The position numbers and the translations under genes were made by a program. Shown here in pieces: positions 35,428-59,651 of a stretch of 64,000 bases of DNA. Numbering within the stretch: the first letter of the stretch is position 1; the number at the start of each line of letters is the position of its first letter. Location of the stretch: NCBI RefSeq assembly GCF_011045215.1, contig NZ_CP049201.1; one strand, 5' to 3'. The DNA is from Escherichia coli. Its GTDB lineage: Bacteria; Pseudomonadota; Gammaproteobacteria; Enterobacterales; Enterobacteriaceae. Under the pieces are notes generated by a model. It ran no database searches. It was not told the DNA's origin and saw nothing but the letters and a program-made list of their open reading frames with translations.

Positions 35428-35515
35428 GGTGAGGTGTCCGAGTGGCTGAAGGAGCACGCCTGGAAAGTGTGTATACGGCAACGTATCGGGGGTTCGAATC
35501 CCCCCCTCACCGCCA
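35428..35515 (+). tRNA. serX: tRNA-Ser (anticodon GGA)
   Basis: 88-nt sequence GGTGAGGTGTCCGAGTGGCTGAAGGAGCACGCCTGGAAAGTGTGTATACGGCAACGTATCGGGGGTTCGAATCCCCCCCTCACCGCCA; anticodon loop CTGGAAA, long variable arm, GGTTCGAATCC T-arm, CCA end; coordinates anchored to overlapping ORF 35442..35702. Confidence 0.95.
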
Positions 35516-35664: not shown

Positions 35665-36507
35665 CTATACTGCCAGCATATCAGGATAGTGTTTTGCGAT
35701 AATATCATTCAGTCTGTCAACCAGTTCTGGTTTTCTGAACGTGATATGCGCGGAGCCCTTCTTAAAGTATCTGATGCTGAACATCTCATCTTCATAGCTC
35801 TCTTTACCCTGAACAGACTGAATGTGATCATCCAGACGAAGGGTGATGTTTCCCCGGTTGTCGGGGATTGGTTTACCGCTGAACAGGTGCAACATTCTTT
35901 CCAGATCGGCGAGTCGATCTGCCTGTTGCCCGGTGATAAGGTGAAATCCCCACCGGTCCCACCTCACCAGGTTGTTGACGATAATTTTACTGCCAAATTT
36001 GCAGGGGCAATTGGTTTTGTAATTCCAGTTCAATCCTCTGAAGACGTTGATCACCCCTCGCTCAAACACCTCATCCTTATTCTGGTGCAGTTGTTCAAAT
36101 GTGCTCAGAATGTTCGCTTCGCTGATTTCCGGAAAATTATCGTACTCCAGTGACCGGTACCATGTATCACGGGCCTGCGTATCCATTAATGACAGCATCC
36201 CGGAACGTTGCATCAGGTCACGCCAGATTTCGCGATCAAGATTCCGGGTAATGGCTTTCATTGCTGTTTCGGGTTTCTCCATCAGCCAGCAACCGCAGCG
36301 AAAATCCTGTTTCATGGCCCAGTCCGGGGCAGTTTTACCTCCGATGCTTTCCGTCAGCACCGAGATTTCAGCCAGTTGTCGGATAAGTGTGTCGATTTGC
36401 AACAGTGTACTCTTTCGTACAGCCAGAATGTGGCGAATGCTGGTTGAGCAGATAACGTCCGTATGCCCGTTGACCACTTCCGGACGGGAGATTGTGATAT
36501 CTGACAT
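35665..36507 (-). CDS. island protein of unknown function, recalled as DUF4942-like
   Basis: ORF track 280 aa, MSDITISRPEVVNGHTDVICSTSIRHILAVRKSTLLQIDTLIRQ...; first gene of the island next to serX; family from recollection of CP4-like islands. Confidence 0.6.
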   Translation of the reverse strand: MSDITISRPEVVNGHTDVICSTSIRHILAVRKSTLLQIDTLIRQLAEISVLTESIGGKTAPDWAMKQDFRCGCWLMEKPETAMKAITRNLDREIWRDLMQRSGMLSLMDTQARDTWYRSLEYDNFPEISEANILSTFEQLHQNKDEVFERGVINVFRGLNWNYKTNCPCKFGSKIIVNNLVRWDRWGFHLITGQQADRLADLERMLHLFSGKPIPDNRGNITLRLDDHIQSVQGKESYEDEMFSIRYFKKGSAHITFRKPELVDRLNDIIAKHYPDMLAV

Positions 36508-36591
36508 AATCGATATTCCTTTTTGCAGATAAATGAAAACGCCAGCCCTGTTCAGGCTGGCGTCAGAGGAATGAAGTCTGGTGAGTGAGCT

Positions 36592-36789
36592 TCACCGGTT
36601 CTGGTGCAGAAGCTGCAGATGACGCAGGGTACGGACATCCTCCCGGGCCTGTTCGATACAGGGCAACAGTGCTGCTGAATCCGTTTTATCCTCATCGTTG
36701 TCAAAGATAATTCCCGATCCGCAGTCGATATTGTCCTGCAGCCACGCAATCAGAATATCCAGCGCTGTTTCCGTGGTTAATGATTTCAT
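36592..36789 (-). CDS. small island protein, recalled as DUF957-like
   Basis: ORF track 36592..36834; residue 16 Met gives 65 aa MKSLTTETALDILIAWLQDNIDCGSGIIFDNDEDKTDSAALLPCIEQAREDVRTLRHL... Confidence 0.6.
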   Translation of the reverse strand: MKSLTTETALDILIAWLQDNIDCGSGIIFDNDEDKTDSAALLPCIEQAREDVRTLRHLQLLHQNR

Positions 36790-36800
36790 GTTGTTTCTGG

Positions 36801-37289
36801 TTACCAGTCGAAAGTGGGTAAACCCGGCAGGCATTCAGCGCTGGCATCCAGATGAATGAGACTGACGCCATAACGTCGGGTAAGTGTGACAACCAGACGA
36901 CGGAACGTTTTTGACAGGCCCAGGCGCTTAAGCCGCAGAACCGGGTATGACCACGCATCGGTACGTAACAGATATCCGCTACCTGTGAAATGAATCCATT
37001 CTGATTCGCCGGTGTCATTCGTCTGATGTGACAGCGAGTACAGCCAGGCGTTGTCCTTTTCCGTGATATGTGCGGTACTGCAGCGTATGCCGGTAAGGGC
37101 AGCAAATGGTGGCGTGCAGTCTGCTGAGGTCCGGTCAGATTCATCAACAACACGAAGGGAGTAGCCGTTATCGCAGACCATGTTAATCAGTTCAGCGAGC
37201 TCAATACCATCAACGTCAACGACAATGCGCCCCATGTTCAGTGCCTGCACGTTAATGCTGTCGGCTTCCAGCGTCAGGGCCAGTTTCAT
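36801..37289 (-). CDS. YeeW-like protein downstream of the toxin gene
   Basis: ORF track 162 aa, MKLALTLEADSINVQALNMGRIVVDVDGIELAELINMVCDNGYSLRV...; ATG overlaps the toxin stop (ATGA). Confidence 0.7.
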   Translation of the reverse strand: MKLALTLEADSINVQALNMGRIVVDVDGIELAELINMVCDNGYSLRVVDESDRTSADCTPPFAALTGIRCSTAHITEKDNAWLYSLSHQTNDTGESEWIHFTGSGYLLRTDAWSYPVLRLKRLGLSKTFRRLVVTLTRRYGVSLIHLDASAECLPGLPTFDW

Positions 37290-37663
37290 TGTTTCGCCCC
37301 CGGATGTTTACCCAGGGTAATGTTATTTACCGTTCTGTAGTTGTCGCGTGTCATCAGGCCGGTTGCCCGGCGTGCCCGGAGGATATCAATACTGTTTATT
37401 AACTGAGAACGGGTACAGGCGCTGAATCCCGGCTGGTCGGTACGCACCAGTGCGTATTTTTCAACGAGAAAGTTCACCGCATTGCACAGTGAAATGCCTG
37501 CCTCAATATGCTGCTCAATCACACGTTCATCAGCGAACGGTGTGTCATTCAGTGTGAGACCGTAATGCTGGTCCAGCAGTCGGGTGAGCAGTGTCTGCCA
37601 GATGGTGACGGGAGACGGGCAGCGCGATGCCTCCCGTACGTGTGTGTCAGGTAATGTTTTCAT
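37286..37663 (-). CDS. CbtA/YeeV/YkfI-family type IV toxin (cytoskeleton-targeting)
   Basis: ORF track 37286..37765; residue 35 Met gives 125 aa MKTLPDTHVREASRCPSPVTIWQTLLTRLLDQHYGLTLNDTPFADERVIEQHIEAGISLCNAVNFLVEKYALVRTDQPGFSACTRSQLINSIDILRARRATGLMTRDNY..., near-identical to recalled CbtA/YpjF. Confidence 0.9.
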   Translation of the reverse strand: MKTLPDTHVREASRCPSPVTIWQTLLTRLLDQHYGLTLNDTPFADERVIEQHIEAGISLCNAVNFLVEKYALVRTDQPGFSACTRSQLINSIDILRARRATGLMTRDNYRTVNNITLGKHPGAKQ

Positions 37664-37709: not shown

Positions 37710-38084
37710 TTATGAGGTGGTTGCGGGTGCCAGTGTCGAATAAACAGCCATATAAACGTAACCACAGCTGCCGAGGGTGTCGGCTTCGCAGGTCAGCCCT
37801 CTGGCATACAGCGTGACGGTATGCTGATGGCGGGGATTCAGTTCACCGCTGGTGAGCATGAGTTCCAGTTGTTTCATCAGCAGCGGAAAGGCCTGGTCCA
37901 GATGGTACGCATCCGCGTCGCTGAACCGGCCTCTGATACCGGCGCGGTCTGCAAGGTAATGCAACCGGTTACCCTCCTGCACCAGACGTGCTCCGAAACA
38001 AGGTGTCACGGTACAGGGCAGTCCCCACCAGGGGCGGCCGCGATTGTCGTCGGGATGAGTTGTCTCATGGAGTGTGTCTGACAC
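37710..38084 (-). CDS. CbeA/YeeU/YfjZ-family antitoxin
   Basis: ORF track 124 aa, MSDTLHETTHPDDNRGRPWWGLPCTVTPCFGARLVQEGNRLHYLADRAGIRGRFSDADAYHLDQAFPLLMKQLELMLTSGELNPRHQHTVTLYARGLTCEADTLGSCGYVY...; directly upstream of the toxin. Confidence 0.9.
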   Translation of the reverse strand: MSDTLHETTHPDDNRGRPWWGLPCTVTPCFGARLVQEGNRLHYLADRAGIRGRFSDADAYHLDQAFPLLMKQLELMLTSGELNPRHQHTVTLYARGLTCEADTLGSCGYVYMAVYSTLAPATTS

Positions 38085-38158
38085 AATAAAATCCTCACAA
38101 AAAATCAGTTAAGAATGGTCCGGTGGCAGCGATAATTCTGCTCATCATTTCTCCTGAC

Positions 38159-38380
38159 TCAGTTCAGAGTGACGCTCATCAGCCGGACATACGGGCCAAA
38201 ACTGTCCTTACGGCGTTCTGCAAACACGGCCAGCACACCGGGAATATCCTGCACTTCACGACCGGTATACGCCTCAGCACTGCCGTGCCAGCGGTATTTG
38301 CCGGTACAGAACGGAAAAAGACGGGATGCAGGATGTTGTTGGTGAATACGCATGGCTTCACCACGGGTGATAATTTTCAT
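38159..38380 (-). CDS. YeeT-like protein (DUF987)
   Basis: ORF track 73 aa, MKIITRGEAMRIHQQHPASRLFPFCTGKYRWHGSAEAYTGREVQDIPGVLAVFAERRKDSFGPYVRLMSVTLN. Confidence 0.85.
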   Translation of the reverse strand: MKIITRGEAMRIHQQHPASRLFPFCTGKYRWHGSAEAYTGREVQDIPGVLAVFAERRKDSFGPYVRLMSVTLN

Positions 38381-38448: not shown

Positions 38449-38940
38449 TTAAAGCAGACCGTGTTCCGCAAAGGAGAAAACCTGGTTGCCTCCGACTATC
38501 AGATGGTCCGGCACCCGGATGTCCACCAGGGCCAGCGCCTGTACCAGACGTTCGGTGATAAGCCGGTCTGCCTTACTGGGTGTGACTTCACCGGACGGAT
38601 GATTGTGTGCCAGCACCACGGCTGCGGCATTGTGATACAGGGCGCGTTTAATCACTTCCCGGGGATGGACTTCCGTGCGGTTGATAGTGCCGGTGAAGAG
38701 GGTTTCACCGGCAATCAGCTGATTCTGGTTATTCAGATACAGCACCCGGAATTCTTCACGCTCCAGTCCCGCCATGTTCAGAATCAGCCATTCCCGTGCC
38801 GCATGCGTGGAGGTGAAGGCCACGCCGGGTTCATGAAGATGGCGGTCCAGGGTTTTCAGGGCCCGCTGAATGAGACTGCGCTCGCCGGGCGTCATCTCTC
38901 CGGGCAGAAAGGAAAGCTGTTGCATTGCCCCTGCCTCCAT
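38449..38940 (-). CDS. RadC-like JAB-domain protein (YeeS/YkfG/YfjY family)
   Basis: ORF track 163 aa with HNHPSGEVTPSKAD (JAMM-like HxHPSG) motif; alternative ATG at 38925 (MQQLSFLPGEMTPGERSLIQRAL...). Confidence 0.88.
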   Translation of the reverse strand: MEAGAMQQLSFLPGEMTPGERSLIQRALKTLDRHLHEPGVAFTSTHAAREWLILNMAGLEREEFRVLYLNNQNQLIAGETLFTGTINRTEVHPREVIKRALYHNAAAVVLAHNHPSGEVTPSKADRLITERLVQALALVDIRVPDHLIVGGNQVFSFAEHGLL

Positions 38941-39426
38941 TCAGTCGATGATGCGCATAATGGCGCTGCATTCCGGATGTTGCAGGGCGTAATCCCGCAA
39001 CCGATAATAATGGACCGTCATGGCATAACACTCCGTACGACAGGCATGATGACTGTACGTCATCAGACAGGCGGCAATGCCGGCGGCTTCCGGACTCATT
39101 TCAGCGCGGTTACCGTTCATGGCATTGAACAGTACCCATGTTTCGTCATCATCGTCATCCGGTTCGGGTGCCATAAATGCCCCGCCGTTGTTCAGGGTGT
39201 ACAGATTCCAGATACCACCGCAGTAGTCTTCGCACAGACGGTCCATCCAGCCGAAGACACGGGGTTCCAGGGTCACCCACTGTGGAATGAGGCCAAAGTG
39301 CTGCGGCCAGAAGCTGATGCGCTGTTCATCAGGGACGGGAGTGGCAACCAACTGAGACTGGTTATTCCCTGATGCAGTAGTTACGGAAACAGAAGGTGTG
39401 GTGGAGCTATGCGAAAAGGTTGTCAT
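38941..39426 (-). CDS. antirestriction protein, ArdB/KlcA family (YfjX/YafX-like)
   Basis: ORF track 161 aa; C-terminal 120 aa (RISFWPQHFGLIPQWVTLEPRVFGWMDRLCEDYCGGIWNLYTLNNGGAFMAPE...HYYRLRDYALQHPECSAIMRIID) match recalled YfjX/KlcA. Confidence 0.85.
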   Translation of the reverse strand: MTTFSHSSTTPSVSVTTASGNNQSQLVATPVPDEQRISFWPQHFGLIPQWVTLEPRVFGWMDRLCEDYCGGIWNLYTLNNGGAFMAPEPDDDDDETWVLFNAMNGNRAEMSPEAAGIAACLMTYSHHACRTECYAMTVHYYRLRDYALQHPECSAIMRIID

Positions 39427-39517: not shown

Positions 39518-40336
39518 TTAGCGCATGCTCTCCAGCAGCGTTTCTGCCATCACCCACAATGCGCGATTGAGCTTAATGTCCGTGTCGATGCTGTGAATGG
39601 CACGGGTGTGGATACGTTTTCCTTTAGCGCTGCGACCGGAAATTCCGCCTTTCAGCATATTCTCCTGAATGGTCTGATAAGCACTCCACAGGTCCTTACC
39701 GTAATCCTCCCTGCGTCGTGGTGTCAGAATGTCGGCGGTGGTGACGGGCTGATGTTCGTCACCATAACGGTAAGTCAGTGCCGCCTGTGCCAGCGCCTGG
39801 TGTGCCGGTGGCGGCAGAATCAGCGACTGCATGGCATCACGCTTTTCCTCAATCCGGTCAAAAACGCCCACCACTTCGTAAGCCCCTTCAATAACTTTCT
39901 CCACCACGTCTCCCCGGTGCGGAACACGCACCTCTCCCAGAGACTGACCGCAGACGCACCCGTTCTGACAAACGAATCTGAAGTAACCCGGCAGCATCTG
40001 GTAGCTGGAGGTACCGTCATGGGAATTGAGCAGGATGATTTCCGGGACATGCTGTCCGTTTATCTCTCCGGCCCGCCGCAGACGCAGCATGTGTTTGGTA
40101 TACCCCCGGCGGCCCGGGTCACGTACGCGGGTCTGGCAGGCGAAGAAGGGCTGAAAGCCCTCCCGCTGCAGACTTTCCAGCACGGTGATGGTGGGGATAT
40201 ACGTATAGCGTTCACTGCGGGAGGTATGCCGGTCTTCCCCAAAAATACCGGGTACATAGTGCATCAGCTCTTCATGTGTCAGCGGACGGTCACGGCGTAT
40301 CTGGTTCGCATAACCAAAACGACTTGCTAATCGCAT
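39518..40336 (-). CDS. DUF932-domain protein (YafZ/YfjQ-like)
   Basis: ORF track 272 aa, MRLASRFGYANQIRRDRPLTHEELMHYVPGIFGEDRHTSRSERYTYIPTITVLESLQREGFQPFFACQTRV... Confidence 0.75.
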   Translation of the reverse strand: MRLASRFGYANQIRRDRPLTHEELMHYVPGIFGEDRHTSRSERYTYIPTITVLESLQREGFQPFFACQTRVRDPGRRGYTKHMLRLRRAGEINGQHVPEIILLNSHDGTSSYQMLPGYFRFVCQNGCVCGQSLGEVRVPHRGDVVEKVIEGAYEVVGVFDRIEEKRDAMQSLILPPPAHQALAQAALTYRYGDEHQPVTTADILTPRRREDYGKDLWSAYQTIQENMLKGGISGRSAKGKRIHTRAIHSIDTDIKLNRALWVMAETLLESMR

Positions 40337-40544
40337 GATCTGCTCCTTATGAATGATTAAGCGGTATAAATGAAAAAGCCGCAGCTCCCGGAGAAGACGC
40401 GGCCTGATGGATGATGTTTATTGTCTGAGGTACCCTTCACGGGCGGGCCACGCATTAAGCTGTTATGACAGCAACCGCCTGCCCGTATGAGAAAGATCCT
40501 TCAGCCAGGACATACTCTGTGTAACCCGGCATATCTGTTTTCTC

Positions 40545-40585
40545 CTGATAAATAAAAAGCCTCTGCCACGCGTTGTGACAGAGGC
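40545..40585 (-). terminator. terminator after the secreted-protein gene
   Basis: hairpin GCCTCTG-N11-CAGAGGC with T-run on the minus strand. Confidence 0.6.
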
Positions 40586-40610
40586 TGAAGCATGAAACTG
40601 ACTTCAGGGA

Positions 40611-50309: not shown

Positions 50310-52748
50310 ATGGCTATCAAAAAAACCGAACTCTATTCTTCCCTGTGGGCAAGCTGCGACGAACTGCGTGGCGGGATGGACGCCAGCCAGTACAAAGACT
50401 ATGTACTGACCCTGCTGTTTATGAAGTACGTTTCCGATAAGTATAAAGGCGATCCTTACGGGATGATCGTGATACCCAAAGGAGCCAGCTTTGACGATAT
50501 GGTTGCGCTGAAAAATGACAAAGAGATCGGCGACAAAATCAACAAAATCATCCACAAGCTGGCGGAAGAGAACGGCCTGAAGGGCGTCATCGACGAAGCC
50601 GACTTTAACGACGAAGATAAGCTCGGCAAAGGCAAGGAAATGATTGACCGCCTGAGCAAGCTTGTCGGTATCTTTGAAGGGTTAAATCTCTCCAGCAACC
50701 GGGCCGAAGGCGACGATCTGCTGGGCGATGCCTATGAATATCTGATGCGTCACTTCGCAACCGAATCCGGTAAGAGTAAAGGGCAGTTTTACACTCCAGC
50801 GGAGGTGTCACGTATTCTGGCGAAGGTGATTGGTATTACTCCCGATACTCCGCAAGATGCAACGGTTTATGACCCAACCTGTGGCTCTGGTTCGCTGCTG
50901 TTGAAAGTGAATGATGAAGCCCGGCGCGGACTGTCGATTTTCGGCCAGGAGATGGATAACGCTACCAGTGCGCTGGCGCGGATGAACATGATTCTGCATA
51001 ACAATGCCACCGCGAAAATCTGGCAGGGCAATACGCTGAGCGATCCGCAGTGGAAAGAGGCGAACGGCAAACTGAAAGCCTTCGATTTTGCCGTGGCGAA
51101 CCCGCCTTTTTCCAATAAAAACTGGACCAACGGGCTGACGCCGAAAAAAGATCCGTTTGAACGCTTCGGCTGGGGTATTCCGCCGGAAAAAAACGGCGAT
51201 TATGCTTTTTTGTTGCATATCATTAAAAGCCTGAAAAGTACCGGCAAAGGCGCGGTGATCCTGCCCCACGGCGTACTGTTTCGCGGTAACGCCGAAGCGA
51301 ATATCCGTGAAAATCTAATCAAGCAGGGCTATATCAAAGGCGTTATTGGTTTGCCAGCCAACCTGTTTTACGGCACCGGCATCCCGGCGTGCATCATTGT
51401 GATTGATAAAGAGCACGCCCACAGCCGCAAAGGCATTTTTATGATCGACGCCAGCCGGGGCTTTATCAAAGATGGCAACAAGAACCGCCTGCGTAGCCGA
51501 GATATTCACCGCATTGTGGACGTGTTCAACCATCAGCGAACGGTACCTGGCTACAGCCGGATGGTGCCCTCCAGCGAGATCGCCGGAAATGATTACAACC
51601 TGAATATTCCTCGCTATATCGAGAGCGGCGAGCCGGAAGATTTACACGATCTGACCGCGCACTTACAGGGCGGTATTCCGGCACGCGATGTGGATGCTTT
51701 GCAAGATTACTGGCGGGTATTCCCTGCCCTGCGCAACGTGCTGTTTGCTGACGACCGTCCCGGTTACTGTCGGGCGCAGGTGAACGCGCAACAGGTGAAA
51801 CCGACCATTCTGGCGCATCAGGAGTTTAAGGATTTTGCCACCCGCAGCCTGCTACCGTTTAAAGCGTGGGTGAAAGAGGCAAGTCTGGAAGAGATTCGCA
51901 AAGGTGATAAACCCAAAGCGCTAATCCACGATATCAGCGAAATGCTATTGGCGCAGTACGCCAACAGTGAGTTGCTGAACAAATACAGCGTGTACCAGAT
52001 CCTGATGGATTACTGGACTGATGTCATGCAAGACGATGTGTATGCGATTATGCAGGATGGCTGGCAAGCCGCCGCGCAAATCCGCGAGCTTCAGCCGGTG
52101 AAAGGCAAAGATGGCAAAAACATCTGGAAAGAAACGCACGATTTCGAGTTTACCAAACGGCGCTACAAGGCCGATGTGCTGCCCCGTTCGCTGGTGGAAA
52201 TTCGCTGTTTCCCGGAACTGCTGGATGCGCTGAACCGCGCGCAGGAGCGCAGTGAAGAAGCCAGTCGTCAGCTAGTGGAATTCATCGAGGAGCAGGCAGG
52301 TGAAGAGGATCTGCTGGCCGAGGCGAAGAACGATAAAGATAAGGTGACGCAAAAGCTGGTGAATGCCCGTCTAGCACAGTTAAAGAAAACCACTGCCGGC
52401 CCAGATGAGCTGGCAGTGCTGAACCGCTGCCTGGCGCTAATTAAGGCCGAAGCCAGTGCGAAAAAAGCGCTGAAAGCCGCACAAGAAGCGCTGGATCGGG
52501 CGGTGTTTAAACATTATCCCACGCTGGATGAAGCAGCGATTAAAACGCTGGTAGTGCAGGATAAGTGGCTGGCAACGTTGCAGGCAGGGATCAAGGCGGA
52601 GATTGAGCGTATTACCCAGCAACTGGCGTCGCGCGTAAAGGAGCTGGAAGAGCGTTATGCTGAACCGTTGCTAGCGCTTGAAGCCTCCGTTGAGGCGTTG
52701 AGCGAGAAAGTGGCCGGGCATTTGCGGGCGATGGGGCTGGAGTGGTGA
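50310..52748 (+). CDS. hsdM: type I restriction-modification system methyltransferase subunit HsdM (long form)
   Basis: ORF track 812 aa; AdoMet motif DPTCGSGSLL and catalytic motif VANPPFS read directly; stop overlaps hsdS start. Confidence 0.9.
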   Translation: MAIKKTELYSSLWASCDELRGGMDASQYKDYVLTLLFMKYVSDKYKGDPYGMIVIPKGASFDDMVALKNDKEIGDKINKIIHKLAEENGLKGVIDEADFNDEDKLGKGKEMIDRLSKLVGIFEGLNLSSNRAEGDDLLGDAYEYLMRHFATESGKSKGQFYTPAEVSRILAKVIGITPDTPQDATVYDPTCGSGSLLLKVNDEARRGLSIFGQEMDNATSALARMNMILHNNATAKIWQGNTLSDPQWKEANGKLKAFDFAVANPPFSNKNWTNGLTPKKDPFERFGWGIPPEKNGDYAFLLHIIKSLKSTGKGAVILPHGVLFRGNAEANIRENLIKQGYIKGVIGLPANLFYGTGIPACIIVIDKEHAHSRKGIFMIDASRGFIKDGNKNRLRSRDIHRIVDVFNHQRTVPGYSRMVPSSEIAGNDYNLNIPRYIESGEPEDLHDLTAHLQGGIPARDVDALQDYWRVFPALRNVLFADDRPGYCRAQVNAQQVKPTILAHQEFKDFATRSLLPFKAWVKEASLEEIRKGDKPKALIHDISEMLLAQYANSELLNKYSVYQILMDYWTDVMQDDVYAIMQDGWQAAAQIRELQPVKGKDGKNIWKETHDFEFTKRRYKADVLPRSLVEIRCFPELLDALNRAQERSEEASRQLVEFIEEQAGEEDLLAEAKNDKDKVTQKLVNARLAQLKKTTAGPDELAVLNRCLALIKAEASAKKALKAAQEALDRAVFKHYPTLDEAAIKTLVVQDKWLATLQAGIKAEIERITQQLASRVKELEERYAEPLLALEASVEALSEKVAGHLRAMGLEW

Positions 52749-54088
52749 TGGTGGATTTAATGGTGAATGAGCAACGGTCGAGTACGGCGGGGAAAGATGT
52801 GCCTGCGGGGTATAAACTGACTGAGGTGGGCGTGATTCCTGAGGATTGGGATTGCGTACCATTTGGTAATCTGTTTAAAACAAACACAAAGAAAAAAAAA
52901 GTCAGCGATTATGAGCTAGTTTCATTTATTGGGATGCAGGATGTTAGTGAAGATGCACAATTAAAAAATAATACTCAACTTCCTTTTAAAGAAGTTAAAA
53001 GTGGTTTTACTTACTTTGAAAAAGGGGATGTTTTATTAGCTAAAATAACCCCTTGTTTTGAAAATGGAAAAGGATGTCATACCGCTGATTTACCTACTAA
53101 TGTAGGTTTTGGGAGTACGGAATTTCATGTATTAAGGGAAAATGAAGACTCCGATTCTCGCTTCATCTATTTTTGGACAACTGATAAAAAATTCAGAGCA
53201 TCACTGGAATCTGAAATGGTGGGAAGTGCGGGACACCGTCGTGTGCCGCTAGTTGCTATAGAAAAATATTTGATTCCATGTCCCCCAAATTTGCAAGAGC
53301 AAAGTGCTATTGCTGATTCATTATCTGATATTAATAATTTTATTCTAGCTCTAGAAAAGCTTATCGTTAAAAAACAAGCCATTAAAACCGCTACTATGCA
53401 GCAACTACTGACGGGTAAAACCCGTTTGCCACAGTTTGCGTTACGCAAAGATGGCTCTGCTAAGGGATATAAAAAGAGCGAGTTGGGGGCGATTCCTGAA
53501 GATTGGGTAGTCACAAGCATTGGACAATTTACTGACTGCTGTGCTGGTGGAACTCCGAGTACTAAAATTTCAGCATATTGGGGAGGAACTCATCCTTGGA
53601 TGAGTTCCGGCGAATTACACTTAAAACAAGTGTATGCTGTAGCCGATTATATAACCGACGAAGGGCTTGTTAACTCCAGTACAAAGTATGTGCCTAAAAA
53701 TTCTGTATTAGTCGGATTGGCAGGACAAGGAAAGACTCGAGGGACTGTAGCAATTAATCGCATTGAATTATGTACTAATCAGTCTATTGCTGCGATTTTC
53801 CCCAGCAAACATCATTCCACAGAATTCCTGTTCTATAACCTCGACAGTCGTTATGAGGAACTGAGAAGTTTATCTACTGGTGATGGGGGGCGTGGTGGGT
53901 TGAATCTTACTATTATCAGGAAATTACATCTTGCATTTCCGCCAAAAGAAGAACAAGCCGCCATCGCCGCCATCCTCTCCGATATGGACAAGGAAATCCA
54001 GATCCTGCAACAGCGTCTGGACAAAACCCGCCAGCTTAAGCAAGGGATGATGCAGGAACTGTTAACCGGGAAAATCCGCTTAATATAG
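52748..54088 (+). CDS. hsdS: type I restriction-modification system specificity subunit HsdS
   Basis: ORF track 52742..54088 (448 aa); ATG at 52748 overlaps the hsdM TGA; two target-recognition-like halves with AT-rich codon usage. Confidence 0.88.
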   Translation: MVDLMVNEQRSSTAGKDVPAGYKLTEVGVIPEDWDCVPFGNLFKTNTKKKKVSDYELVSFIGMQDVSEDAQLKNNTQLPFKEVKSGFTYFEKGDVLLAKITPCFENGKGCHTADLPTNVGFGSTEFHVLRENEDSDSRFIYFWTTDKKFRASLESEMVGSAGHRRVPLVAIEKYLIPCPPNLQEQSAIADSLSDINNFILALEKLIVKKQAIKTATMQQLLTGKTRLPQFALRKDGSAKGYKKSELGAIPEDWVVTSIGQFTDCCAGGTPSTKISAYWGGTHPWMSSGELHLKQVYAVADYITDEGLVNSSTKYVPKNSVLVGLAGQGKTRGTVAINRIELCTNQSIAAIFPSKHHSTEFLFYNLDSRYEELRSLSTGDGGRGGLNLTIIRKLHLAFPPKEEQAAIAAILSDMDKEIQILQQRLDKTRQLKQGMMQELLTGKIRLI

Positions 54089-54100
54089 AAGGGAAAGCAC

Positions 54101-54757
54101 ATGGCTTATGATTACAGCGCCAGCCTCAACCCGCAAAAAGCTCTGATCTGGCGTATCGTCCATCGGGACAATATCCCGTGGATTCTGGATAACGGGCTGC
54201 ACTGCGGCAACAGTCTGGTGCAGGCGGAAAACTGGATCAATATCGGCAACCCGGAGCTGATCGGCAAGCGTGCCGGGCATCCGGTACCTGTCGGAACGGG
54301 CGGGACACTGCATGACTATGTGCCGTTTTATTTTACCCCCTTCTCGCCAATGCTGATGAACATCCACAGCGGGCGCGGCGGCATTAAGCAACGCCCCAAT
54401 GAGGAGATCGTTATTCTGGTCAGCAACTTGCGGAACGTGGCAGCACACGACGTGCCCTTCGTGTTTACCGACAGCCATGCTTACTATAACTGGACCAACT
54501 ACTACACCAGTCTGAATAGTCTGGACCAGATCGACTGGCCCATTTTGCAGGCACGGGACTTTCGCCGCGATCCAGACGATCCGGCTAAATTTGAACGCTA
54601 TCAGGCAGAGGCGCTAATCTGGCAACACTGCCCGATCTCTCTGCTGGATGGGATAATTTGTTACAGCGAAGAGGTCAGGTTACAATTAGAGCAATGGCTG
54701 TTTCAGCGTAATCTAACAATGTCCGTTCACACACGGGCTGGATGGTACTTCTCATGA
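54101..54757 (+). CDS. darT: DarT, DNA ADP-ribosyltransferase toxin (DUF4433)
   Basis: ORF track 218 aa; motifs [18 protein letters not shown] and C-terminal GWY(F) line up with recalled DarT; starts 13 nt after hsdS stop. Confidence 0.88.
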
Positions 54758-55821
54758 TCACATATACACAAGGCAATTTACTGGACGCACCGGTGGAAGC
54801 TCTGGTGAATACGGTTAATACCGTCGGTGTCATGGGGAAAGGCATCGCGTTGATGTTTAAAGAGCGCTTCCCCGAAAATATGAAAGTCTATGCCCTCGCT
54901 TGCAAACAAAAGCAGGTGATCACCGGCAAAATGTTCATTACCGAAACCGGGGAACTGATGGGACCGCGCTGGATTGTTAATTTTCCGACCAAACAGCACT
55001 GGCGCGCTGATTCCCGCATGGAGTGGATTGAAGATGGCTTGCAGGACTTACGCCGCTTTTTGATTGAAGAGAACGTGCAGTCCATCGCCATTCCACCACT
55101 GGGCGCAGGCAACGGTGGTTTGAACTGGCCGGACGTTCGGGCGCAGATTGAATCTGCCCTTGGCGACCTTCAGGACGTTGATATCCTGATTTACCAACCG
55201 ACTGAAAAATACCAGAACGTTGCCAAAAGCACTGGCGTAAAAAAGCTCACTCCCGCCAGAGCCGCCATCGCTGAACTGGTGCGTCGCTACTGGGTATTGG
55301 GGATGGAGTGCAGCCTACTGGAAATCCAGAAACTGGCCTGGCTGTTACAACGCGCCATTGAGCAGCATCAACAGGACGATATCCTCAAACTGCGGTTTGA
55401 AGCTCACTATTATGGCCCCTATGCGCCCAATCTGAACCATCTGCTTAATGCGCTGGACGGCACCTATCTAAAAGCCGAGAAACGCATCCCGGACAGCCAA
55501 CCGCTGGATGTGATCTGGTTTAACGATCAAAAAAAAGAACACGTTAATGCGTATCTGAACAACGAAGCCAGAGAGTGGCTACCTGCGCTGGAGCAGGTCA
55601 GCCAGTTAATTGACGGCTTTGAATCGCCGTTTGGTCTGGAGTTGCTGGCAACCGTAGACTGGTTGCTGAGCCGTGGCGAATGTCAACCAACGCTGGATTC
55701 CGTTAAGGAAGGACTGCACCAGTGGCCTGCGGGCGAACGCTGGGCCAGCCGTAAGTTGAGGCTGTTTGATAATAATAATCTGCAATTTGCCATTAACCGC
55801 GTAATGGAGTTCCATTGCTGA
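54754..55821 (+). CDS. darG: DarG, macrodomain antitoxin (DNA ADP-ribosyl glycohydrolase)
   Basis: ORF track 54742..55821; ATG at 54754 overlaps darT stop (ATGA); N-terminal macrodomain signature [39 protein letters not shown]; about 200-aa C-terminal domain. Confidence 0.88.
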
Positions 55822-55839: not shown

Positions 55840-58800
55840 TTGAGTACCGTGGGCCAGCGCGAACGCGCCACACAGCAGCGTCTGATTCAGTTTTTTGTTG
55901 AAGATTTAGGATACCGCCATCTGAGTCACCGCACCGGGTACACCGGGAACAGCAACATCGACACTAATATACTGAGCGCGTGGCTAAAACGGCGCGGCGT
56001 TAATGATACGTTGATCACCCGGGCGTTGCGGCAACTGGATTCCGCCGCCGCCCTGGGCGAAGGCAAAAAACTCTATTACGCCAATAAAGAGGTCTATCGC
56101 CTGCTGCGTTACGGCGTGAAAGACAAAGAAGGTGCAGGCGAGCAGAACCAAACCGTGTGGCTGATTGACTGGGCCAACCCACAAGCCAATGATTTCGCCA
56201 TCGCCGATGAGGTGACGGTCAAAGGCGAGTACTGCAAGCGCCCGGATCTGGTGCTGTACGTTAACGGCATTGCGCTGGGCGTGATTGAACTTAAGCGTTC
56301 GTCAGTGCACGTCAGCGAAGGTATCCGGCAGAATCTCGATAATCAAAAGAAAACCTTTATCCGCGATTTCTTCACCACTATGCAGTTAGTGATGGCAGGC
56401 AACGATACGCAGGGCCTGCGCTACGGCACCATCGAAACCCCGGAAAAATACTATCTGGAGTGGAAAGAAGATAATCCAGGCGACTATACACATAAACTCG
56501 ACTTTCATTTAAGTCGTCTGTGTAGCAAATCCAGGCTGTTGGATATCGTCCATAATTACATTGTCTTTGATGTCGGGGTGAAAAAACTCTGCCGCCATAA
56601 TCAGTTCTTCGGCGTCGAGGCGGCTAAGCAACATATTGCCCGTCGTGAAGGCGGTATTATCTGGCACACACAGGGATCGGGTAAAAGCCTGACGATGGTC
56701 TGGCTGGCGAAGTGGATCCGTGAAAATGTGCCAAACTCCCGCGTGTTGATTGTGACTGACCGCACCGAACTGGATGAACAGATCGAAAGCGTGTTTATGG
56801 GCGTGAATGAAGATATTTATCGCACCTCCAGCGGCAACGATCTTATCGCAACGCTCAATCATCCTAACCCGTGGCTTATTTGCTCGCTGGTGCATAAATT
56901 TGGTTGTCGCAGCGAAGCTGAAGACAATGCGGCTACCGACGCCTTTATCACCGAATTACAGCAGTCCCTGACGAAAACATTCCGCGCCAAAGGCGATCTG
57001 TTTGTTTTTGTGGACGAGTGCCACCGCACACAATCCGGCAAGCTGCATAACGCCATGACTGCCATTCTGCCGGACGCCCTGTTTATCGGTTTTACCGGCA
57101 CACCGCTGATGAAGAAAGATAAGAAGAAGTCGGTTGAGGTGTTCGGCCCTTATATCCATACCTATAAATTTGATGAAGCGGTGGCCGACGGTGTGGTGCT
57201 GGATCTGCGCTACGAGGCGCGCGATATTGACCAGTATCTGACATCAGAGAAAAAGGTCGATGACTGGTTTGAAGCCAAGACTCGCGGTTTGTCGAATTTA
57301 GCCAGGACCCAGCTTAAGCAAAAGTGGGGATCAATGCAGAAGCTGCTCTCCAGCAAGTCGCGGCTGGAGCAGATCGTTAACGACATTTTGCTGGATATGG
57401 ATACCCGTCCACGCCTGATGGACGGGCGCGGCAACGCCATGCTGGTATGCAGCAGTATCTATCAAGCCTGCAAGGTTTACGAGATGTTCAGCCAGACCGA
57501 GCTGGCAGGAAAAGTAGCGATTGTGACCAGCTATCGCCCCGATGCCGCCAGCATCAAAGGCGAAGAAACGGGCGAAGGGTTAACGGAGAAACTCTCTAAA
57601 CACGCCACCTATCGTAAAATGTTGGCTGACTATTTTGAACAAAGTGAAGAGAAGGCCGCCGCACGCATTACCGAGTTCGAGCGGGAAGTGAAACAACGTT
57701 TTATTGAAGAGCCGGGGCAAATGCGCCTGCTTATCGTGGTGGACAAGCTGTTGACTGGCTTTGACGCGCCGTCCGCCACCTATCTCTACATTGATAAAAC
57801 CATGACCGACCATACGCTGTTTCAGGCGATTTGTCGGGTGAACCGGCTGGACGGTGAGGATAAAGAGTATGGCTATATTATCGATTATAAAGATCTGTTC
57901 CGTTCGCTGGATAAAGCGATTACCGATTACACCACGGGCGCGTTTGATGATTACGATCGGGACGATGTGGCCGGGTTGCTGAAAGACAGGCTGGAGCAGG
58001 CGCAACTGGATCTCGACAGCGCGCTGGAGATGGTTCGCAGCTTATGTGAGCCCGTCAAAACCCCGCGCAGCCTGCAGGACTATCAGCACTATTTTTGCGG
58101 TAAATCAGGAGAGAATCAGACTTCGTTAAACGAAAAAGAGGCGCTGCGCCTGACATTTTACCAGTGCGTCGCCCGTCTGCTACGCGCTTATGCCAGCATC
58201 GCCAATGAAATGCCGGAAGCAGGCTACACTGCCGAAGAGGTAGAGAGCATTCGCGCCGAAGTCGCTGAATTCGAAAAACTGCGCTATGAGATTAAGCTGA
58301 CCAGCGGCGATCTTCTGGATATGAAGCGCTTTGAACCCGCTATGCGTCATTTACTGGATATGTATGTTCGCGCCGATGGTAGCGAAGTGCTGATGGATTT
58401 TGAAGAGTTAAGTCTGATTGAACTGATTGTCGAGAAAGGCTTGGCGGCGACCGTCGCCCTGCCGGATGATATCCGTAATAATCAGGATGCGATGGCGGAA
58501 ACCATCGAAAACAACGTGCGCAAAACCATCGTGGATGAAAACCCGGTTAACCCAAAATACTATGGACGCATGTCGCAGCTGCTGGATGAACTGATTACCC
58601 TTCGCCGACAAAATGCGCTCAATTATCAGCAGTATCTGGAACGTATCCGCGATTTGTGTAAACAGGTCATCCGCCCGGAGCAAACCGCCGGAGCGTGCTA
58701 CCCTGCCACCATGGATACACAAGCAAAGCGCGCCTTCTATGACAACTTCGGCCACGACGAGGTACTGGCGACCCGCATAGATACGACAATTCGCTATACC

Positions 58801-58935
58801 AAAAGGGCAGAGTGGATTGGCGATCGTTTTAAAGAACGGGAAATTGCCAACGCATTACGTGAAGAGACCGCCAGCTATAATATTGATATTGATGAGGTGA
58901 TAGCGCTTGCCCGTCAGCAGAAGGAATATCACTGA
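55840..58935 (+). CDS. hsdR: type I restriction enzyme endonuclease/translocase subunit HsdR
   Basis: ORF track 1031 aa; nuclease-like DLVLYVNGIALGVIELK and helicase DECH (FVFVDECHRTQ) motifs read; starts 19 nt after darG. Confidence 0.92.
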   Translation: MSTVGQRERATQQRLIQFFVEDLGYRHLSHRTGYTGNSNIDTNILSAWLKRRGVNDTLITRALRQLDSAAALGEGKKLYYANKEVYRLLRYGVKDKEGAGEQNQTVWLIDWANPQANDFAIADEVTVKGEYCKRPDLVLYVNGIALGVIELKRSSVHVSEGIRQNLDNQKKTFIRDFFTTMQLVMAGNDTQGLRYGTIETPEKYYLEWKEDNPGDYTHKLDFHLSRLCSKSRLLDIVHNYIVFDVGVKKLCRHNQFFGVEAAKQHIARREGGIIWHTQGSGKSLTMVWLAKWIRENVPNSRVLIVTDRTELDEQIESVFMGVNEDIYRTSSGNDLIATLNHPNPWLICSLVHKFGCRSEAEDNAATDAFITELQQSLTKTFRAKGDLFVFVDECHRTQSGKLHNAMTAILPDALFIGFTGTPLMKKDKKKSVEVFGPYIHTYKFDEAVADGVVLDLRYEARDIDQYLTSEKKVDDWFEAKTRGLSNLARTQLKQKWGSMQKLLSSKSRLEQIVNDILLDMDTRPRLMDGRGNAMLVCSSIYQACKVYEMFSQTELAGKVAIVTSYRPDAASIKGEETGEGLTEKLSKHATYRKMLADYFEQSEEKAAARITEFEREVKQRFIEEPGQMRLLIVVDKLLTGFDAPSATYLYIDKTMTDHTLFQAICRVNRLDGEDKEYGYIIDYKDLFRSLDKAITDYTTGAFDDYDRDDVAGLLKDRLEQAQLDLDSALEMVRSLCEPVKTPRSLQDYQHYFCGKSGENQTSLNEKEALRLTFYQCVARLLRAYASIANEMPEAGYTAEEVESIRAEVAEFEKLRYEIKLTSGDLLDMKRFEPAMRHLLDMYVRADGSEVLMDFEELSLIELIVEKGLAATVALPDDIRNNQDAMAETIENNVRKTIVDENPVNPKYYGRMSQLLDELITLRRQNALNYQQYLERIRDLCKQVIRPEQTAGACYPATMDTQAKRAFYDNFGHDEVLATRIDTTIRYTKRAEWIGDRFKEREIANALREETASYNIDIDEVIALARQQKEYH

Positions 58936-59651
58936 TGCCAATCATGCAAATAGGCTCGTTACACTTGCTGGTCAACCGTAAGGCGATTAAGAATCTGCAT
59001 ATCAGCGTGCTGCCGCCTGATGGCAAAGTCCGCGTTTCAGCGCCGGAACATATGACGGAGACGGCGATTCGTATGGCGGTTGCTTCACGCTTTCGCTGGA
59101 TCAGAAAACAGCAGCAGGATTTCGCCAGACAGCCTCGTCAATCAGAGAGGGAAATGGTCAGCGGAGAGTGCCACTATCTTTGGGGCCGAAGATATCGCCT
59201 ACTTGTGATTGAGCGTCACGGGCGTCACGAAGTAAAAGTTGCGGGAAATAATAAGCTCCAGCTTTATGTTCAACCGGGAACCCGTGATGAAAATAAGGCA
59301 TTGGCGTTAAGTGAATTTTATCGACATGAACTAAAACAGCAGGTGGCTAAGCTTCTACCTGAATGGCAAGACCGAATCGGTGTTCCCCTAACATTCTGGG
59401 GCATCAAAAAGATGAAAACCTTTTGGGGCACCTGTAACACTACAACAAAACGAATCTGGCTCAATCTGGAGCTAATTAAGAAGCCGCCGGAGTGTCTGGA
59501 GTATATTCTGGTGCATGAACTGGTTCATCTTCTGGAACGTCACCATAATGCTCGCTTCCGGTTGCATATGGATCGGTTTATTCCTGACTGGCGTGAGCGT
59601 CGGGATTTGTTAAATAATATGCCGTTAGCGTTTGAGGCATGGGAGTATTGA
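58935..59651 (+). CDS. DUF45/YgjP-like zinc metallopeptidase-domain protein
   Basis: ORF track 238 aa; HEXXH motif ILVHELVHLLERHH; ATG overlaps the hsdR stop by 1 nt. Confidence 0.8.
   Translation: MPIMQIGSLHLLVNRKAIKNLHISVLPPDGKVRVSAPEHMTETAIRMAVASRFRWIRKQQQDFARQPRQSEREMVSGECHYLWGRRYRLLVIERHGRHEVKVAGNNKLQLYVQPGTRDENKALALSEFYRHELKQQVAKLLPEWQDRIGVPLTFWGIKKMKTFWGTCNTTTKRIWLNLELIKKPPECLEYILVHELVHLLERHHNARFRLHMDRFIPDWRERRDLLNNMPLAFEAWEY

Follow-up and report, generated by a model that had tools for sequence, protein, structure and literature searches.

A predicted ArdB antirestriction gene and an RRDM restriction locus share a serX-associated genomic island in Escherichia coli

The accepted role of the ArdB family of antirestriction proteins is the protection of incoming DNA. 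The characterised ArdB and KlcA proteins are 134–157 amino acids long with isoelectric points of 4.6–5.05 (Table 1 of PMC2836571), and ArdB has been described in the literature as a globular protein that does not mimic DNA. The island-borne ArdB of uropathogenic E. coli CFT073 (ArdB-CFT) was cloned together with YafX and YfjX of E. coli K-12 by Serfiotis-Mitsa et al. (PMC2836571). Without induction, ArdB-CFT raised the plaquing of unmodified lambda 710-fold against a type IA, 54-fold against a type IB, 199-fold against a type IC and 1174-fold against a type ID system, with modification in vivo nearly untouched; vector-only controls showed full restriction (value 1 in Table 2), and both YafX and YfjX were active antirestriction proteins in vivo (Table 2, PMC2836571). 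In the same study EcoKI was not inhibited by ArdB in vitro, and ClpXP was dispensable for ArdB action (PMC2836571). Later work found the effect to be independent of the recognition site and to fail against type III and BREX systems (PMC10149784). In vitro, the ArdB of plasmid R64 inhibited one type I enzyme from Bacillus at a 30-fold molar excess, and its activity requires the C-terminal aspartate, D141 (PMC12429846).

Two further described systems bear on the locus studied here. In prophage CP4-57 of K-12, the genes yfjX-yfjY-ypjJ-yfjZ-ypjF, running from the ardB homologue to cbtA, form one operon that is now named lfgABCDE. This operon is induced by stress (oxidative, in single cells) and repressed by MqsA, and LfgB, its RadC-like protease, degrades MqsA. 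In K-12 the stress phenotype was traced to lfgB; deletion of lfgA resisted complementation and was considered polar. The second system is the seven-gene restriction locus RRDM, characterised from the enteropathogenic E. coli (EPEC) strain E2348/69 by Zhang et al. (PMC12255303). Carried on pBR322 in DH5alpha, the EPEC locus protected the cells 10^3- to 10^7-fold against several phages. RptR represses it through three direct repeats overlapping the −10 box, and infection induces it (PMC12255303). An ArdB gene lies 11–17 kb away in the same island and is not discussed in that paper (PMC12255303).

The window analysed here is a stretch of 64 000 nucleotides from E. coli (contig NZ_CP049201.1). The ardB gene occupies positions 38941–39426 on the minus strand and encodes a protein of 161 amino acids ending in ...MRIID. 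Read from the sequence, the frame has an ATG start, a TGA stop and an AAGGA Shine–Dalgarno motif 9 nt upstream. The original prediction had assigned it to the ArdB/KlcA-like family, to be refuted if both a profile hit and restriction-alleviation activity were lacking; this assignment held, with a match to PF03230 (Antirestrict) of 127.4 bits (E 2.4e-37; curated cut-off 25 bits) that spans residues 66–161 and all 92 of the 92 profile positions. Among solved structures, the CFT073 ArdB (2WJ9) matched at E 2.8e-98, and over residues 24–161, the folded domain, 136 of 138 positions were identical, leaving two substitutions relative to a protein that has itself been assayed. KlcA of plasmid pBP136 (PDB 2KMG) matched across the same residues at E 5.9e-20. 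The protein is acidic (pI 4.72; 19 Asp and Glu against 8 Lys and Arg) and retains the C-terminal aspartate; the KlcA terminus reads ...RAID. NCBIfam contains no model for ArdB, CbeA or CbtA and returned nothing for them, and the Rfam scan placed no RNA element inside or adjoining ardB. A plus-strand frame at 38461–39372 that overlaps the gene was set aside as an antisense artefact.

An identical protein was found on 432 contigs in public databases under the name "antirestriction protein", and the cluster that holds it at 90 % identity has 11 164 members. Four comparisons with other island copies gave dN/dS of 0–0.08 for the domain, the comparison with the E2348/69 copy showing 13 synonymous and no non-synonymous changes; against K-12 yfjX the synonymous sites were saturated. 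Purifying selection on the folded domain is strong; the first 25 residues, rich in Ser and Thr, are free to vary (dN/dS 0.33–0.49). As judged by homology, the open reading frame is an ArdB antirestriction gene of an already characterised kind, and the near-identical CFT073 protein together with YafX and YfjX suggests that its product would alleviate type I restriction in vivo and spare modification.

The gene is the second of a co-directional minus-strand module in the order DUF932-ArdB-RadC-DUF987-CbeA-CbtA-DUF5983. The first gene, a YfjQ-like DUF932 gene at 39518–40336 (PF06067, E 1.2e-51), lies 91 nt upstream of ardB and is the same neighbour that ardB has in related islands. Downstream, a frame for a RadC-like JAB protease of the YeeS/YfjY/LfgB kind (38449–38940; PF04002, E 3e-45) abuts the ardB stop codon (TGA directly followed by ATG). 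The start of this gene is likely to be the ATG at 38925, behind a GGAGG motif; its RefSeq homologues are 477 nt long. It is followed on the minus strand by a YeeT/YpjJ-like DUF987 gene (38159–38380; PF06174, E 5.4e-40), a type IV antitoxin gene of the cbeA/yeeU family (37710–38084; PF06154, E 1.4e-54), a toxin gene of the cbtA/yeeV family (37286–37663; PF06755, E 1e-62) and a YeeW-like DUF5983 gene (36801–37289; PF25638 and PF19419). For cbtA, the ATG at 37663 is the likely start because the Pfam domain begins at residue 35 of the 159-amino-acid open reading frame. An extra gene of 684 nt (DUF8835 or hypothetical) sits between DUF987 and cbeA in strains RIVM_C029670 and PK5086 and is absent from the corresponding interval here (38085–38158).

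Beyond DUF5983, a small minus-strand frame at 36592–36789 occupies the position of the DUF957 annotation of a related locus (L001); a Pfam search of this frame gave no match. After it stands a terminator-like hairpin with a T-run on the minus strand (36538–36564; 11-bp stem with 7 GC pairs), which is likely to mark the end of the module transcript. A comparable minus-strand hairpin with a T-run (40558–40586; 12-bp stem with 7 GC pairs) lies after irmA and upstream of the module. The interval 40337–40610, between irmA and DUF932, also holds a DUF905 gene reduced by a 119-bp internal deletion, relative to RIVM_C029670, to a frame of 25 amino acids, as well as a second hairpin with a T-run directly upstream of the DUF932 start. 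A search for sigma-70-like promoters on the minus strand of the module found none, and fewer were counted in total than expected from shuffled sequence.

The last island gene before the left border is a minus-strand DUF4942 gene (35665–36507; PF13708, E 8.7e-69). The border itself is serX, a plus-strand tRNA-Ser(GGA) gene at 35428–35515 identified by ARAGORN and by the Rfam tRNA model. It is abutted by the CbtA/DUF4942 end of the island, which reads in the direction of the 3′ end of the tRNA. A repeat of this serX 3′ end, which could represent the other attachment site, was not found within the window, and the window contains no genes for a relaxase, type IV secretion system, integrase or transfer functions. 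The core genes to the left of serX (ghrA to csg, including the curli genes) are 99.5 % identical to E. coli; this identity, together with the exact ArdB on 432 contigs, ruled out a source of the window other than E. coli. Complete E. coli genomes match the module at 94.7 % identity at best, which suggests a mosaic.

The original prediction had also placed ardB in the same island as a type I restriction system. This was borne out: the two lie on one stretch that begins at serX and extends beyond the end of the window, and other strains carry this stretch as a block, at serW or serX. Between the module and the restriction operon, on the minus strand, are a YeeR-family membrane protein gene for 840 amino acids (41142–43664), which has no Pfam match and is intact here and frameshifted in some relatives, and a frame of 314 amino acids (48088–49032) without a family match, whose N-terminus was judged by eye to be possibly GIY-YIG-like (YVGVS...RRITEHY). 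An IS102 RNA match (RF00124, 74 bits) at 46647–46883 on the minus strand lies in the leader upstream of an Ag43-family autotransporter gene (43779–46703).

The prediction described the type I system as a complete hsdMSR operon about 11 kb away. None of the three hsd genes is disrupted or truncated in comparison with the tested EPEC proteins, and the distance is 10.9 kb; that description missed darT and darG, which lie between hsdS and hsdR, and the flanking rptR and M48 genes. The operon has the seven genes of RRDM in RRDM order, rptR-hsdM-hsdS-darT-darG-hsdR-M48, all on the plus strand. RRDM loci are recognised by a promoter with two or more RptR boxes of the form TAGCTA, TATCTA or similar (PMC12255303), and the operon promoter here contains three direct repeats, TTAGCTAA, TTAGCTAA and TTATCTAT, at 49984–50010 (TAGCTA, TAGCTA and TATCTA), as predicted RptR operator boxes. 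They precede rptR (50031–50270), which encodes a 79-amino-acid protein 96.2 % identical to EPEC RptR, the repressor of the restriction/DarTG operon (PMC12255303).

The hsdM gene (50310–52748; 812 amino acids; PF02384, E 6.7e-104, and TIGR00497) encodes a protein 97.8 % identical to EPEC HsdM. Its C-terminal extension of about 360 residues (approximately 450–812; 51660–52748) appears helix-rich by eye and is conserved in EPEC HsdM; searches of Pfam, NCBIfam and solved structures returned no match for it. The hsdS gene (52748–54088; two PF01420 stretches) encodes a protein 67 % identical overall to EPEC HsdS. The first, N-terminal target-recognition domain (TRD) is unrelated to that of EPEC and the second half is identical, which points to a domain swap and predicts that the two enzymes differ in one half of the recognition site. 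The gene darT (54101–54757; PF14487, E 2.3e-53, and NF048013) encodes a single-stranded-DNA thymidine ADP-ribosyltransferase toxin 99.1 % identical to EPEC DarT, and darG (54754–55821; NF048014, E 2.5e-135) a macrodomain antitoxin 100 % identical to EPEC DarG. The operon closes with hsdR (55840–58935; 1031 amino acids; TIGR00348, E 1e-163; 99.6 % identical to EPEC HsdR) and an M48/YgjP-like metallopeptidase gene (58935–59651; PF01863, E 1.4e-61; 100 % identical to the EPEC protein). Among solved enzymes, HsdR and HsdM are nearest to EcoR124I, distantly (HsdR E 1e-35). The anti-phage activity shown for the EPEC allele may extend to the present allele, in which the first HsdS TRD differs.

Further to the right, the window holds an Ail/Lom-family outer-membrane protein gene (60259–60816) and an orphan CdiA C-terminal fragment with a PT-VENN motif (61312–62208); a small hydrophobic frame beside the fragment (61082–61315) could be its immunity gene. 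In loci of related strains, the region right of RRDM (L004, 42862–48635; L008, 42098–45992) contains a type I Zorya system, cdiBA and a TOTE conflict-system primase gene, and this part of the island appears to be a hotspot for defence genes. At the far right of the island in a related strain are YfjI-like and Gp2-like genes.

To place the linkage in context, the distribution of ardB was compared with that of RRDM. Of 5426 complete E. coli genomes, 4490 carry an ardB-like gene; the copies number 12 594, with a median of three per genome, and 99.9 % of them are on chromosomes. Plasmids that carry more distant relatives, at 28–38 % identity, number 4963, of which 77 % are conjugative. One IncF example is found in the leading region with ssb, DNA methylases and DUF905 as neighbours, and another relative is close to a relaxase gene. 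Apparent plasmid copies of the island itself were discounted as evidence of plasmid carriage, because these records hold core genes (cydC, infA, serW) and look chromosomal. NZ_CP194962.1 (pEC16-AU-EG1, 243 kb), labelled a plasmid, has cydC, aat, infA and serW around the island and looks like a mislabelled piece of chromosome; the EDL933 record NZ_CP124741.1 (286 kb), also labelled a plasmid, carries an ardB 98.6 % identical. Overall, ardB belongs to the conserved backbone of the E. coli tRNA-associated islands that resemble CP4-6, CP4-44 and CP4-57.

RRDM is present in only 247 genomes. In six of the seven RRDM contexts examined, an ArdB module lies in the same island, 10.9–17 kb from hsdM. 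Three of these are at serW (RIVM_C029670, O157:H7 NE 1169-1 and EC16) and PK5086 is at serX; for E2348/69 and EC5654 no tRNA site was seen in the stretch examined. The seventh, 1344_LBHALD, is rearranged and cut by a pheV island. Seen from the other side, about 2 % of ardB copies have RRDM nearby and about 98 % do not (247 genomes against 12 594 copies). This one-sided association is as expected from accretion of cargo into a common backbone; in E. coli, this island lineage is where RRDM resides, and the linkage fits hitch-hiking, though selection for carrying both loci together may also play a part.

These distributions bear directly on the possibility that ArdB is functionally coupled to RRDM. 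Early after transfer, ArdB would keep restriction off with modification on, so that the new host is methylated before HsdR becomes active, and would also shield the island against the enzymes of the recipient. The general properties of ArdB suit such a role: it blocks restriction and hardly modification, has acted on all type I families tested at any site, and is effective against enzymes of the EcoR124I type, to which the island HsdR and HsdM are nearest; the frequent proximity of the two loci around RRDM points the same way. Because ArdB acts independently of the recognition site, it would probably inhibit the type I enzyme of its own island if expressed. However, ArdB does not look specialised for RRDM, because some 12 600 ardB copies in 4490 genomes stand against RRDM in 247. 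RRDM also has a repressor of its own with three intact operator boxes and an M48 peptidase, the seven genes alone, on a multicopy plasmid, became established and worked in a naive K-12 host that lacked the island ArdB (PMC12255303), and the occurrence of nearly the same ArdB domain (136/138) in CFT073 PAI II leaves no RRDM-specific allele. The suggestion in the original prediction that ArdB might modulate the island's own system thus found no support, given the mismatch in copy number, the dedicated RptR and the ability of RRDM to work without the island ArdB. A functional link between ArdB and RRDM is speculative, each locus can be explained without it, and we regard the coupling as unlikely.

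Two other readings concern ArdB itself. The module might have been co-opted for host stress physiology in the manner of K-12 lfgABCDE, with ArdB having no antirestriction role in situ. The gene order ArdB-RadC-DUF987-CbeA-CbtA, on one strand, is common to the window and CP4-57, and the paralogous K-12 operon is induced by oxidative stress and controlled through MqsA and LfgB as described above. Against this, the K-12 phenotype belongs to lfgB, the lfgA deletion having been judged polar, expressed YfjX has strong antirestriction activity of its own, and the upstream regulatory DNA is not conserved. The MqsA-bound promoter region lies roughly 250 bp upstream of the K-12 ardB gene; when 430 nt upstream of the two genes were aligned, similarity was at chance level only, and the DNA upstream of the window ardB is the 3′ end of the intact DUF932 gene. 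Carry-over of MqsA regulation from lfgA (yfjX) was therefore rejected, the upstream DNA being non-homologous, and co-option of this kind is quite improbable. That ardB is a silent relic with no current function is scarcely credible. Decay is evident among its neighbours, in the DUF905 deletion here and in the frameshifted DUF4942 and YeeR genes of related islands, and the lack of a promoter-like site on the minus strand of the module would agree with silence; but the ardB frame is intact, the substitution pattern of its domain is that of a constrained protein, and its 90 %-identity cluster is very large.

The most probable explanation, which we hold with good though not complete confidence, is that ardB encodes a functional ArdB belonging to the island backbone, and that RRDM is accessory cargo with its own repressor, linked to ardB by having landed in this island lineage and not by any service that ArdB renders to it. 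The position 11 kb from RRDM looks like that of island cargo with no dedicated partnership. ArdB would then be an entry or establishment function inherited with the backbone, where entry is meant by analogy because the window is without relaxase, type IV secretion and integrase genes. If expressed, ArdB would inhibit DNA cleavage by type I enzymes and allow their methylation to continue. Expression in the resident state is probably too low to inactivate such enzymes. The assay hosts of the 2009 study were reportedly K-12 derivatives and hence carriers of yafX and yfjX. At its native expression, a chromosomal ardB is probably harmless to type I enzymes, because the vector-only controls restricted fully and yafX and yfjX are K-12 genes.

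The placement of darT and darG recalls EcoprrI, where hsdS and hsdR are separated by prrC, an anticodon nuclease gene whose product is activated on inhibition of the enzyme by a phage peptide. By analogy, DarTG might be a guard that is freed when the type I complex is blocked, or ArdB might hold HsdR off during methylation of a new host, a pair of ideas that we consider distinctly doubtful. If the guard reading were true, de-repression of the island ArdB would set off DarT in the cell that carries it, unless this ArdB is a variant to which RRDM is tolerant.

Much of this is known already: the family, a near-exact protein, its structure, its activity in vivo and the neighbouring RRDM have all been described, and thousands of genomes carry an annotation of the gene. 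What the analysis clarifies is the relation between the two loci, with ArdB as backbone and RRDM, including DarTG, as cargo under its own repressor. For antirestriction and restriction genes to reside together is the normal state in E. coli.

Of the known systems, the closest to the gene itself is the ArdB of CFT073 PAI II (ORF14, NP_752219; 2WJ9). The two share the nearly identical domain, the ...MRIID end, an acidic pI and a location in a pathogenicity island; they differ in the Ser/Thr-rich N-terminal stretch of about 23 residues, in length (161 amino acids in the window and 157 in CFT073) and in site, the present island being at serX and not at the PAI II site. YfjX (LfgA) of CP4-57 and YafX of CP4-6 share the family and the downstream order from ArdB to CbtA. 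YfjX is, however, only 69 % identical in amino acids, its upstream region including the MqsA site is non-homologous, and in CP4-57 the DUF932 gene is 6 kb from the ardB gene rather than immediately upstream. KlcA of the IncP-1 plasmid pBP136 (2KMG) and the plasmid ArdB proteins of pKM101 and R64 have in common with the window protein the Pfam family, the fold class and the conserved C-terminal aspartate. Their restriction-only phenotype is also that of the island ArdB members, among which the window protein is placed by its sequence. They are only about 28–38 % identical and lie in the leading or kil-kor regions of conjugative plasmids, not in a CbtA/CbeA module. For the restriction locus, the closest system is the EPEC E2348/69 RRDM, with the same seven genes in the same order, three RptR boxes and proteins 96–100 % identical except for HsdS, in which the first TRD differs and overall identity falls to 67 %. 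The ArdB gene of E2348/69 is 97.5 % identical and lies about 17 kb from RRDM with many IS elements between the two loci, whereas in the window the two are separated by 10.9 kb in which no IS element was annotated or detected.
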